DNA from: a virus
Virus record (IMG/VR): IMGVR_UViG_3300037041_001083
Span: 1-64,000 of that record
DNA: 64,000 nucleotides
Strand: one strand, 5' to 3'
The translations under genes and the position numbers were made by a program. The notes under the pieces were generated by a model. The model was not told where the DNA came from. It was given only the letters and a program-made list of their open reading frames with translations, and ran no database searches. Shown piece by piece: positions 10,377-15,743 of this stretch; position 1 is the stretch's first letter, and each line of letters starts with the position of its first letter.

Positions 10377-11512
10377 TTGACTTTTTACGTTATATCACAT
10401 AACTGATTCCTTGCCGTTTCTTCTTCGATCGAAGCTTGCGGTAAAACGCAAGGAAGGACAAACGGCATGATTACCTACCGCTATCGTATCAAAGATTCAA
10501 CAGACATAAAATTCCTCAAATCAATCGCTGGAAAAGTAAACCATGCTTGGAATACTACACAACATATTCGTTTAGAAAATTTGGAAAACAACAAAAAGCT
10601 TCTTACACGGTTTCAGCTTCAAAAGATTGTTTATGTTGATGGATTGCATAGTCAAGTAACTCAAGTTGTTATTCAGCAGTATGTTCAAAAATGTGTCCAA
10701 TTCAAGAAAGCAAAACTTCGATGGCGCACAGGCAAGCGTAACCTTGGGTGGATACCTTGCACCAATCAGAATGTGAAGTTTGATAAGTACACTGGTGATT
10801 TTAAGTTCATGAAACGCAAATTTCGCATATGGTACTCACGTCCTATTAGCGGTAAAATCATGACAGCTTCAATGAACGAGGACTCCAGAGGTCGTTGGTA
10901 TATCAATATCGTTTGTGAAACCACTGTAACCAAGCCTCACGGTGAACGTGAAATAGGTATCGACTTAGGTTGTAAAGACCAGATTGTTTGCTCCGATGAA
11001 GTTAAATACTCACGGGAAAACCTGACTAAGGAATTTGCACCAAAGCTTGCAATGGCGCAGCGAGCCAAGAAAAAGAAGTTGGTTAAAACGATACATGCCA
11101 AGATTAAAAACAAGAGATTAGATTGGAACCACAAAACAACTACTGAAATATGCAGGACAAGTAAACTTGTAGTTGTTGGGGATATAGGTTCAAAAGGATT
11201 ATGCAAAACAAGAATGGCGAAGTCGTTATACGATGCAAGCCATGCTCAAATAAAAACTATGCTGTCATACAAAGGCATTAGCCACGGCGTAGTTGTGAAA
11301 ATAGTTTCTGAGAAGTTCTCTACTGTTACATGTTCATCTTGTTATAAAAGAACAGGGCCGAGCGGAATTAAACAGCTAGGGGTTAGACAGTGGAGTTGTT
11401 CAGAATGTGGTGCAAACCATGACCGAGATGTTAATGCAGCTCGAAACATACTACTGTCGGCTAAGGATATTTAGCTCCAATTAAGGGAATCTCCACGAGG
11501 AGAGGATGTCAA
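10377..11512 (+). mobile_element. IS200/IS605-family element carrying tnpB only (IS1341-like)
   Basis: tnpB with a typical right end GGAATCTCC-ACGA-GGAGAGGATGTCAA (to 11512); putative left TAM TTGAC at 10377-10381; no tnpA; opposite strand to its neighbours. Confidence 0.75.
10467..11474 (+). CDS. tnpB: RNA-guided endonuclease TnpB
   Basis: TYRYRI N-terminus, RuvC-I IGIDLG, Zn finger CSSC...CSECG, RuvC-III HDRDVNAARNI. Confidence 0.95.
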   Translation: MITYRYRIKDSTDIKFLKSIAGKVNHAWNTTQHIRLENLENNKKLLTRFQLQKIVYVDGLHSQVTQVVIQQYVQKCVQFKKAKLRWRTGKRNLGWIPCTNQNVKFDKYTGDFKFMKRKFRIWYSRPISGKIMTASMNEDSRGRWYINIVCETTVTKPHGEREIGIDLGCKDQIVCSDEVKYSRENLTKEFAPKLAMAQRAKKKKLVKTIHAKIKNKRLDWNHKTTTEICRTSKLVVVGDIGSKGLCKTRMAKSLYDASHAQIKTMLSYKGISHGVVVKIVSEKFSTVTCSSCYKRTGPSGIKQLGVRQWSCSECGANHDRDVNAARNILLSAKDI

Positions 11513-11891: not shown

Positions 11892-13376
11892 TTATTCCTC
11901 CTCATCCCAGTTAATACCAATAAACTCATGGTCATCAACAGCGACGTATCCATGAGAACGATGCTTAGGGTCAGCGGTAAAGCAGTAAACTAAGTCGCCT
12001 TCTGCTTCATCAAGTACAGGCTCCAACTCGCCGTTTTTGCCCGATGCTTCCAATAGCATCTTTACTTCAGGATAATAGTTTATGAAGTTGTTGTAAAGGT
12101 GAGGATTATTATACAGGAAGCGAACTACGTTACGGATACTGTTTTCTTTTCCAAGCGTATCACGAACATTTTTGAAAGTGTCATTTGAATACCACAGCAC
12201 TCCGGCAAATTCTGAGATGCTTACAACCGATGTCCAAATGTCGCTGGCGAAGTCTTTGTAAAAATTATCTACGTCCTCCCATGTTACCATGTACATGCCT
12301 TGATTTTCTTTCCACATTCCATACATAAACTCTGCGAACCAATGAGCATCAATCGGCCAAGTTGGGATACGAGCACCATTTCCACCATAATAGTCGTCTG
12401 GAAGCTTTGTTTGATGATATAACTTGATCCCATTAGCATCAGCCAATTTTTGCATTATCATGCAGTCTTCGTAAAATTCAGCCCATTGATTACAGCGATC
12501 CTTGTAACCTGCGATACCACCCTTTAATTCCTGTTTCTGCTTTGGTGTGAAGTGCAAGTTGTCGGTATAAACACCTGTACAGCCAATTTCCTTTGCCGTT
12601 TTGAAATAGGTTTTAAGGTCAGGTTGCCATTCTGCAACATAAGGATTCATCGCCATAGTGACTTTTACACCAGCCTTGGTTAGCTCCTGTATTCGCCTGA
12701 TTCTTTCGCTTGGAAGTATTTTGCCACATTCATATTTCTTGGCTGTTTCATCGTTCAGTGTTGATATGCTTATGTACACATTAAATATGTCTTTGCCGTC
12801 GATGATGAGCTGTTTTACTATTTCGTTTGGATAAACCTCTTTCGTTTGGATAAACAACGGCTGCTTGTATTCCAAGCATGTTTTTAGGATGCGTTCGCCC
12901 AGCTTATACTTTGACTCTGATTCAGGCATAAATGGATCGACGTTGTTACTGAACACCATGCCATATCTGTGATGTAAACACAGCTCGATTAAGTTGTGCG
13001 GATTGTATCCGGGACTGTGCGCCTTCTGAATCTTTTTAATCACGGCATCGGTCGGATCGTCGATGCTACCGATCATATCCTTGTTTGCTTTCTTGTTAAG
13101 CGTAGCAAAGCAAAAACCGCATCCTTGCAAGCACATTTTCGTGATGGATAGCTCTAGGGGAAATGGGTGATTGAACAACGTGCCAAACATCTTTAGTGGC
13201 CCTGAGCTGAAAGTTACCTTGGGTGGCTGGTCGCCTTTTTTCGGTTTTACGTCTGGTTGAATTGCGAATGCTTTTTCCTGACAAGCATCCCACTCTGGGG
13301 TTCCGACTTGATCGCCTTTGCACTTCGATGGTCTTGGGATTGGTTTCGCCTTGGATACTGGTTTTTTGACTACCAT
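11892..13376 (-). CDS. Radical SAM protein (spore photoproduct lyase-like)
   Basis: CxxxCxxC (CLQGCGFC), DPFMP.E, IQTK, ISIST, P.ERI..I.EL..AG; start at ATG 13376 after GAGGAG. Confidence 0.88.
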   Translation of the reverse strand: MVVKKPVSKAKPIPRPSKCKGDQVGTPEWDACQEKAFAIQPDVKPKKGDQPPKVTFSSGPLKMFGTLFNHPFPLELSITKMCLQGCGFCFATLNKKANKDMIGSIDDPTDAVIKKIQKAHSPGYNPHNLIELCLHHRYGMVFSNNVDPFMPESESKYKLGERILKTCLEYKQPLFIQTKEVYPNEIVKQLIIDGKDIFNVYISISTLNDETAKKYECGKILPSERIRRIQELTKAGVKVTMAMNPYVAEWQPDLKTYFKTAKEIGCTGVYTDNLHFTPKQKQELKGGIAGYKDRCNQWAEFYEDCMIMQKLADANGIKLYHQTKLPDDYYGGNGARIPTWPIDAHWFAEFMYGMWKENQGMYMVTWEDVDNFYKDFASDIWTSVVSISEFAGVLWYSNDTFKNVRDTLGKENSIRNVVRFLYNNPHLYNNFINYYPEVKMLLEASGKNGELEPVLDEAEGDLVYCFTADPKHRSHGYVAVDDHEFIGINWDEEE

Positions 13377-13408
13377 AAAAACTCCTCGTTCTGGAATAAC
13401 TAACACTA

Positions 13409-13497
13409 AACTCATCCCCACAACTGTAGGGAAATGAAAACTCCTCGTTCTGGAATAACTAACATTGCGGTTCATTCCCACAAATGCAGGAAAGCAT
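13409..13497 (-). CRISPR. Degenerate type I-E-like mini-array (repeat-31 nt spacer-repeat), no cas genes
   Basis: R1 ATGCTTTCCTGCATTTGTGGGAATGAACCG (13497-13468); R2 CATTTCCCTACAGTTGTGGGGATGAGTT (13436-13409); both keep the hairpin with G-U pairs; R1 ends in the I-E handle ATGAACCG. Confidence 0.55.
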
Positions 13498-13558
13498 CCA
13501 GCTCAAATGTTATAACTTATTTTTTTAATTTTTGAATGTCTGTGGTTTTGAGGCTGGT

Positions 13559-13737
13559 TTATTTGTTGCGGTAAAAATGCCGGAAAATTTCAACAGCATC
13601 ATTTGCTCCATACGTTTGCTTGAGGTAGTACAATAAATCATCAAAATTCTTTGTTCTTAGTTTTTTCATTTGTTCGACTAGCTGGCTGAAATTCCATTGA
13701 TGTAGCTATCATAAATTTCGTCAAACTTATCTGACAT
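13559..13737 (-). pseudogene. Small ORF with a single-base frameshift (or assembly error)
   Basis: AAGGA RBS plus MSDKFDEIYDSYING; one added base near 13690 would continue to ...FRHFYRNK*. Confidence 0.4.
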
Positions 13738-13789: not shown

Positions 13790-14011
13790 TTACTCCACTG
13801 GCTCAACCACTGGCTCAACCACTGGCTCAAGTTTTTTTATTTCTGACAAAATATCCCTACCGAAATAACATAGCTGGTAATAATCATCCTGATTAAAAAC
13901 AAAATCAGGCTGGCTTGATATTTCTGATAATTCGCTTTTTACAACGTCGCTTATTTTAAAAAGTATGCGCCTTTGCAACTCTACATTTGAACTATTGAAG
14001 CCAATATACAT
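13790..14011 (-). CDS. Small early hypothetical protein
   Basis: AGGAG RBS; C-terminal PVVE repeats. Confidence 0.7.
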   Translation of the reverse strand: MYIGFNSSNVELQRRILFKISDVVKSELSEISSQPDFVFNQDDYYQLCYFGRDILSEIKKLEPVVEPVVEPVE

Positions 14012-15155: not shown

Positions 15156-15743
15156 ATGAACAATAATGAGTCACAATTTTTTGAGGCAATACCAATGGCC
15201 AGACGTAGTAAAATCCAAGCGGGACAACTAAGCATGTTTGACATGGCTGTGGTTGGCTCGAAGGAGCCAGCACCAGCACCAGCACCAGCACCAGCACCAG
15301 CACCAGCACCAGCCAAACCCGAAAAAAATGCAATAATATTGCAGAAAACGGCCAAGCTGTTAAAGTTCCCGATCAAAATTAAAGAGGTTTTCCCTGACGA
15401 TGACGGTAAAAAATGCAAACATTGCGGCTATATTATAGCTCATGATGCAGAACTAAGCTTGTCGTTTGATAACCTCGAAACCATGCAATCAGGCAAATAC
15501 ATGTGTCCTAATTGCTTGGAATTTTGGGAAGACAAGCACATTTTCAGTAATATAGTTACGGCAAATGAAATAGGAATTACGATGAATTTGCCGTGGTATT
15601 TATTGCGTGAAATACTGACAGAATACGACATTCCTGAAGGGTGTAGGTTCGACCTTTATCATGCAATGGTGATAGCTGGCGAGAAGCAAATTAAACAAAT
15701 TGCACCTGACATACACGATATATACTTTGGAGAAGCAGGATGA
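15156..15743 (+). CDS. Zn-finger protein with PA linker and a QLSMF clamp-binding-like motif
   Basis: CKHC...CPNC; (PA)8; likely start at 15195 after GAGG. Confidence 0.65.
   Translation: MNNNESQFFEAIPMARRSKIQAGQLSMFDMAVVGSKEPAPAPAPAPAPAPAPAKPEKNAIILQKTAKLLKFPIKIKEVFPDDDGKKCKHCGYIIAHDAELSLSFDNLETMQSGKYMCPNCLEFWEDKHIFSNIVTANEIGITMNLPWYLLREILTEYDIPEGCRFDLYHAMVIAGEKQIKQIAPDIHDIYFGEAG
15267..15314 (+). repeat. (CCAGCA)n microsatellite, about 8 copies
   Basis: Read directly; encodes PAPAPA. Confidence 0.9.

Follow-up and report, generated by a model that had tools for sequence, protein, structure and literature searches.

The leader of a radical-SAM gene in an uncultured phage from a sediment metagenome most likely holds a virus-borne mini-CRISPR array, which is Cas-less and, as judged from its sequence, of type I-E ancestry. 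The phage is of the myovirus type (it encodes a tail sheath, a major head protein, a primase-helicase, and RecT) and is represented by an 80-kb IMG/VR record, IMGVR_UViG_3300037041_001083, that is 87% complete; the stretch analyzed here, referred to as the window, is the first 64 kb of this record. On the minus strand, the stop of a small open reading frame (ORF; 13559) is followed by an AT-rich stretch, a first repeat (R1), a 31-nt spacer (box 1), a second repeat (R2), a near-copy of the spacer (box 2), and the ATG of the radical-SAM gene. The features of the locus, in the direction of transcription of the gene, are as follows.

13509..13536, minus strand: candidate sigma-70-like promoter, TTCAAA-16 nt-TATAAC, about 12 nt before R1, with TATAAC at 13509-13514
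13468..13496, minus strand: R1, a degenerate type I-E-like repeat with a 7-bp stem, a 4-nt loop, and all 8 nt of the AUGAACCG handle
13437..13467, minus strand: spacer (box 1), 31 nt, a copy of the ribosome-binding region of the gene, including GAGGAG
13408..13436, minus strand: R2, a type I-E-like repeat with a stem as in real repeats and a decayed 3' handle, AUGAGUUU
13377..13407, minus strand: box 2, the 5' untranslated region native to the radical-SAM gene (GAGGAG, 5 nt, ATG) and the phage's own copy of the spacer
13378..13490, minus strand: 59/60-bp tandem duplication holding both units, as found by Tandem Repeats Finder
11892..13376, minus strand: radical-SAM gene, 494 amino acids (aa) from ATG 13376, PF04055

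An earlier note on this DNA had described the same layout, and its coordinates, the identity of spacer and copy over 28 nt, their two mismatches (positions 1 and 3), the GTT at the position of the protospacer-adjacent motif (PAM), the hairpins kept through G-U pairs, the TATAAC in the AT-rich leader, and the assignment of the gene to the radical SAM family are all correct on the minus strand. Tandem Repeats Finder reports the region as a single array (13378-13490; period 59, 1.9 copies, 83% matches, score 161), i.e., as head-to-tail copies of one unit, and this is the only tandem repeat in the window with a period of >24 bp. The repeat-to-repeat period between R1 and R2 is 60 nt, close to the 61 nt of type I-E arrays. 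A tandem duplication describes the origin of the unit and is compatible with CRISPR-type readings of it.

The two parts of the duplicated unit have diverged unevenly. The 27-nt core of the boxes is found at exactly two places in the window (13378-13404 and 13437-13463) and nowhere in 100 shuffles, and the identity reaches 28 nt when the flanking T is included (13437-13464 versus 13378-13405). Over all 31 nt, the spacer and its copy differ at two positions only, 1 and 3, and the three bases preceding the copy are GTT. R1 and R2, on the other hand, differ at 11 of 29 positions (Fisher p = 0.004 against 2/31; p = 0.004 also when the 28-nt box, with 0 changes, is set against 11/29). Because a neutral duplication would not be expected to diverge in this way, both boxes are probably held constant, a pattern that would fit a guide and a target that are both maintained.

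To place the repeats, we took real arrays from a collection of 185,579 species, each represented by one genome. Arrays whose repeats end in GTGGGGATGAACCG with a 61-nt period are abundant in this collection (at least 120 loci), and a sample of 120 loci among the matches listed yielded 91 distinct type I-E repeats, from which a covariance model was built and run with filters off. In the window, R2 was the first match (16.9 bits, E = 0.002) and R1 was the second (16.2 bits, E = 0.003), with the next match at 11.7 bits; across the whole 80-kb record (160 kb of strand), R2 and R1 were the sole matches. On the same scale, real repeats score 40 to 44 bits, within-array variants 31 to 39 bits, and degenerate repeats in other viral arrays 11 to 29 bits. 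About 9 of 24 array-less genomes contain one match this strong, a background of about 1 per 12 Mb or about 0.005 per 64-kb window. By plain identity, R1 and R2 are likewise the top two in the window; their closest sampled real repeats, among the matches listed, agree at 22/29 and 21/29 positions, respectively, values that shuffled windows reach in 5% and 20% of trials when compared with any of the 91 repeats, and plain identity is weaker evidence for type I-E ancestry than the covariance model.

The way in which the two copies have decayed points in the same direction. The TTCCCTAC...GTGGGGA stem of R2 is that of three real arrays (L013, a Fibrella array; L049; and L077), and the AUGAACCG handle (AUAAACCG in Escherichia coli) is kept at 8/8 positions in R1 and at 4/8 in R2. 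The pair at the base of the stem, C6-G21, is C-G in 91/91 sampled repeats and in R2 and is U-A in R1. Leaving aside positions 1 to 3 and the loop, the two repeats disagree at positions 6, 10, 21, and 26 to 29, and at each of these seven, one of the two copies keeps the base that is invariant or near-invariant in the 91 repeats; for two random diverged copies, the chance of such complementary decay is about 0.5 to the seventh power. The decay of R2, in which the stem and AUGA are intact and the last four bases are lost, resembles that of the terminal repeats of real arrays, which in 33 arrays kept 19.8 of 21 stem-part bases and 5.8 of 8 handle bases. Further, an 18-base core pattern of R2 had three matches in 2.9 million viral contigs, all of them within CRISPR-like arrays. 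The complementary decay, the terminal-repeat pattern, and the viral-array matches together raised our estimate of the ancestry, and from these sequence comparisons the hairpins very probably derive from type I-E repeats. Their resemblance to such repeats exceeds chance, and the likeness claimed in the earlier note is thus borne out by the covariance model, the decay pattern, and the viral-array matches.

Both copies are 29-nt units with the 7-bp stem and 4-nt loop of type I-E repeats, and the covariance model aligns both in register. R1 folds at -7.3 kcal/mol with two G-U pairs, and R2 folds at -10.5 kcal/mol with one. The stem changes (C-G to U-A, C-G to U-G, and A-U to G-U) all preserve pairing on the minus-strand RNA, whereas the same changes on the other strand would give A-C mismatches. 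Since the changes pair only in the minus-strand RNA, they point to selection acting on the RNA. In the predicted fold of the whole leader (13374-13520), the decayed R2 tail and the first bases of box 2 pair with the stretch that separates the -10 element from R1, a pairing that encloses both hairpins (z = -1.96).

R1 and R2 lie on the strand that is transcribed, and their well-preserved parts are those that a mature type I-E CRISPR RNA (crRNA) would retain, namely, the 8-nt handle of R1 and the hairpin of R2. We hypothesize that a solitary repeat once stood before the ribosome-binding region and that a tandem duplication of about 60 bp then produced the order repeat, spacer, repeat, native leader. 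Searches of the record revealed no cas6e, cas7e, or cas1, in keeping with the Cas-less state that the earlier note had proposed, and any activity would therefore need host proteins. In a host with a matching type I-E system, Cas6e would cut at the base of both hairpins and free one crRNA-like RNA of about 60 nt, consisting of the R1 handle, the 31-nt spacer, and the R2 hairpin, which Cascade may then load. The phage's own copies would be safe, box 1 being flanked by the CCG of the repeat and box 2 having GTT together with mismatches at seed positions 1 and 3. In E. coli, the consensus interference-proficient PAMs of type I-E are AAG and ATG, CAG, GAG, TAG, and AGG also interfere, and CCG falls in the non-interfering, non-priming group (PMC6568314); PAM and seed mutations block interference (PMC4678831). 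The guide would therefore be disarmed against its carrier and would act only on relatives that have the leader behind a PAM, so that its use may lie in the superinfection exclusion of related phages.

Such a use has a precedent. Viral mini-arrays have one or two spacers and no cas genes (PMC6858448; PMC11656645), the composition seen here, and the majority of their spacers are directed against related viruses (PMC11656645). The mini-arrays of SPV1 and SPV2, two viruses of Sulfolobus, have spacers against close relatives; the sites targeted are situated close to the arrays, and point mutations have altered the corresponding copies in the carrier (PMC6858448). Like the present locus, those of SPV1 and SPV2 (Medvedeva et al. 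2019) are intergenic, consist of one spacer and two repeats without cas genes, and have a nearby match whose copy in the carrier holds changes, which in the phage are the two seed mismatches and the missing PAM and would be protective. They differ in that their repeats equal those of the host and their spacers were presumably acquired by adaptation, whereas the repeats of the phage are degenerate and unequal, its spacer comes from its own adjacent leader, and the unit lies inside a 5' untranslated region. We rank a guide against relatives first among the explanations because SPV1, SPV2, and a review provide precedent and because it explains the identical boxes. As stated, this explanation is tentative, possible rather than probable on the analysis presented here, and we consider it an even question whether the unit still works with host Cas proteins at all.

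Several observations weigh against a guide of this kind. At 16.2 and 16.9 bits, R1 and R2 score far below real repeats, Rfam CRISPR-DR families gave no match to the repeats at E values up to 10, and no array in the genome collection carries the 3' 15-mer of R1. The repeat family was itself chosen by a 14-mer of R1, which makes the R1 score partly circular and inflated (R2 is less affected). The U-A pair of R1 adjoins the expected Cas6e cut site, and cutting at R1 is accordingly uncertain. A spacer equal to the flank beside the last repeat is the product of a plain tandem duplication and not of adaptation. The exact box patterns are absent from the viral contigs, no related virus with the box was found in contigs or sequencing runs, and the target of the guide is hypothetical because no related phage with the presumed target was found. 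The searches identified no host, and the closest sampled real repeats agree with R1 and R2 at 22/29 and 21/29 positions. None of 1942 spacers from the 120 sampled type I-E arrays matches the phage beyond chance. The promoter is weak, its TTCAAA and TATAAC being uncalled by a simple sigma-70 scan and its -10 element lacking the final T. Finally, the whole case is carried by one genome from one sample.

Other searches addressed relatives and the host. Comparison of the locus region with phages and plasmids (megablast and blastn) returned only one chance 43-nt match, a capsid-region protein had no match among phages, no phage tRNAs were found, and the spacer had no match in three genomes with CCCTAC-type arrays or, outside the phage itself, in any of the collections searched. 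These collections likewise contained no close relative of the phage. An atlas look-up for the host returned only "commonest Pseudomonadota." Among sequencing runs, one DNA run (a sediment metagenome) holds the stretch, and no RNA run was listed; a Logan contig of this run, the probable source, is identical over the stretch and, being from the same sample, is not independent.

The evidence for type I-E ancestry serves equally well an explanation in which the unit is an RNA decoy and nothing more. Here, host Cas6e and Cascade would cut and bind the unit as a mimic of crRNA and be soaked up by it, the spacer sequence would be irrelevant, and the duplication would be kept because it yields an RNA of crRNA size. 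Interference is reduced by competition from a non-targeting crRNA (PMC10651486), and the finding that the spacer has a target only in the phage itself is as a decoy would predict. The Racrs (Camara-Wilpert et al. 2023, PMC10651486), which include RacrIE1 and RacrIE2, are comparable in being Cas-less phage-borne repeat mimics that keep the hairpin and handle and have a possible promoter upstream; they differ in being single repeats with a tail, selected as candidates for high similarity to the repeat of a model host, whereas the present locus has two repeats with a crRNA-sized spacer and moderate similarity to real repeats. A Racr would be expected to have a promoter within 250 bp upstream and to be expressed as a small RNA, and at the present locus TTCAAA-16-TATAAC is present, although the scan did not call it. 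The leader may also be transcribed by read-through from the upstream small-gene operon, as there is no terminator between the two. A decoy places no constraint on its spacer, and yet not one base of the 28-nt box has changed, against 11/29 positions that differ between the repeats; R1 also lacks the invariant C6-G21 pair, and no acr or aca gene was recognized among the neighboring small genes. An anti-CRISPR context could not be demonstrated because the upstream small genes, including a 37-aa ORF, have no PHROG family. We consider a decoy alone unlikely.

Comparably unlikely is the explanation that the hairpins are relics, derived from type I-E repeats and no longer meeting Cas proteins. They would then be at most 5' stem-loops of the radical-SAM messenger, with the boxes retained because ribosomes load there or because a regulator binds them as DNA or RNA. 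The low model scores, the loss of C6-G21 in R1 and of the handle in R2, and the 3' end of R1, present in no array of the genome collection, are what a relic would show, and both box copies hold Shine-Dalgarno bases with a small hairpin (AUUCC/GGAGU) that pairs these bases in every predicted fold. The decay is not random, however: precisely the R1 handle and the R2 hairpin have escaped it, and pairing survives each of the stem changes. A role of box 1 in translation is also not evident, as no start codon stands at the proper distance downstream of it, in contrast to box 2, whose GAGGAG stands 5 nt before ATG 13376 as a canonical Shine-Dalgarno sequence.

The gene caller had placed the start of the radical-SAM gene at an ATG inside R1, giving a 527-aa form (P0001) whose frame is open through both units (13373-13475, minus strand). 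We rejected this start, since the extra 33 residues have no counterpart in an alignment of eleven relatives, and we treated the whole repeat region as 5' untranslated RNA because the N termini of the homologs do not cover the extension and a Shine-Dalgarno sequence precedes 13376.

A third explanation is that the resemblance arose by chance, through an ordinary 59-bp duplication of a leader that happened to include a hairpin whose 3' arm is G-rich and had no CRISPR ancestry. This is how Tandem Repeats Finder reports the region, and the rates at which shuffled windows reach 22/29 and 21/29, the lack of an Rfam match, and the choice of the repeat family by R1's own 14-mer all agree with it. In addition, homologous radical-SAM genes at three loci in metagenome contigs (41 to 56% identity) have unrelated leaders, which makes the layout lineage specific. 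The outcomes that the earlier note had named as grounds for abandoning its own proposal include a lineage-specific duplication and the lack of a significant match to type I-E repeats; the unrelated leaders speak for the first, whereas the second did not hold, since the match to type I-E repeats is real. Against chance, the two best model matches in 160 kb of strand coincide with the window's only repeat of >24-bp period, which moreover has a period that fits type I-E, the ACCG kept by R1 and the stem kept by R2 make up for each other's losses, and the viral matches to the R2 core all lie inside arrays. We consider a chance resemblance improbable.

Similarly doubtful is a more far-reaching proposal, in which the locus would be a protein-free, self-made homing or exclusion element. 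From a solitary repeat, the 60-bp leader duplication would have made a functional array with one spacer, set exactly against the target site of the phage itself, Cascade-Cas3 would cut relatives that have the ancestral leader, the insert would be copied into them when they are repaired from the carrier, and the Cas6e cut at R2 would free the radical-SAM messenger and thereby tie its expression to the CRISPR state of the host.

Degenerate repeat-spacer-repeat units with unequal repeats, some of them of type I-E and phage-borne, are also found among the crRNA-like regulators Cracr, CreA, and CreR (Liu et al., bioRxiv 10.1101/2024.10.29.618823), and a Cracr repeat with a 1-nt deletion is poorly processed (bioRxiv 10.1101/2024.10.29.618823). 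The spacers of these regulators pair PAM-proximally with a host cas or toxin promoter beside a PAM, whereas the only known match of the present spacer, box 2, is a PAM-distal one within the phage itself, lacks a PAM, and does not offer the at least 9 PAM-proximal pairs next to a PAM on which they depend. The earlier note had proposed a switch, in which either Cascade is led to box 2 by a crRNA-like RNA and there represses the cassette, or translation of the radical-SAM gene depends on host CRISPR status through cutting by Cas6e; the constancy of the 28-nt identity between spacer and leader and the existence of regulatory crRNA-like RNAs beside their targets favor it, but GTT at the PAM position with mismatches at seed positions 1 and 3 is the opposite of the pattern that CreA, CreR, and Cracr need, and the GGAG pairing is predicted to be identical in the full leader and in its Cas6e-cut form, so that we judge a switch of either kind very unlikely.

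Phages are already known to jam or borrow the CRISPR systems of their hosts by means of solitary repeats, mini-arrays, and crRNA-like regulators. For such units, the locus adds a possible origin that does not require adaptation machinery: duplication of a repeat and its flank yields a guide that matches the ancestral sequence of the phage itself, while position protects the carrier. The locus also provides an example of a unit of this kind lying in the 5' untranslated region of a protein-coding gene. If processing by Cas6e were demonstrated, the locus would be a natural test of how much repeat decay Cas6e and Cascade tolerate, of the homing-like spread of mini-arrays, and of coupling between a gene and CRISPR. 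At present, its value is that of a testable hypothesis from one metagenomic genome.

A close counterpart among viral arrays, and one of the three matches to the R2 core pattern, is in a complete 58-kb phage with terminal repeats (IMGVR_UViG_3300023094_000011), in which L125:1220-1309 is a two-repeat type I-E-like mini-array with a 32-nt spacer. A terminator stands on one side of it and a convergent gene on the other, and there are cro/cI-like and O-like genes nearby. Like the present locus, it is a viral two-repeat unit, with a spacing of 61 nt (60 nt in the present locus) and a first repeat that has the TTTCCTGC arm and a perfect handle; its second repeat has the TTCCCTAC...GTGGGGATGA core, as in R2, and its first repeat shares T6, T9, and G10 with R1, bases that occur in 0%, 3%, and 4% of real repeats, respectively. 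It differs in being a free-standing unit in an early region of the temperate type and in having better-preserved repeats (21 and 29 bits), and a second copy of its spacer, at up to 3 mismatches, is absent from the genome of that phage. Another viral array of degenerate type I-E repeats, with at least 8 repeats and a 61-nt period, is found at L127:11247-11760 (the same sequence is present in L126); its repeats differ from one another, and the last of them has a decayed 3' end.

The product of the radical-SAM gene has distant matches to radical SAM families of the PA0069/Rv2578c type, and its relatives carry the JGI name "DNA repair photolyase." Its nearest protein relative (P0002) is 62% identical, and no relatives of the protein were found in the viral contigs searched. 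From its sequence, it is a distant SplB/PA0069-type radical-SAM protein with no assigned role, and the DNA-modification cassette that the earlier note had envisaged around it is not supported by this assignment. A TnpB (IS605 OrfB) gene with PF07282 and PF01385 lies at 10467-11474 on the plus strand, convergent with the radical-SAM operon, and has metagenome relatives with up to 79% identity. The possibility that the hairpins are the ends of this nearby IS605/TnpB element was ruled out, as the radical-SAM gene lies in between. Directly upstream of the leader, two tiny ORFs of 19 and 37 aa occupy 13559-13736 (minus strand) in different frames and may represent a split or frameshifted small gene. 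The small-gene region farther upstream contains short perfect tandem repeats at 13795-13830 (12 bp, three copies) and 15267-15313 (CCAGCA, 7.8 copies).

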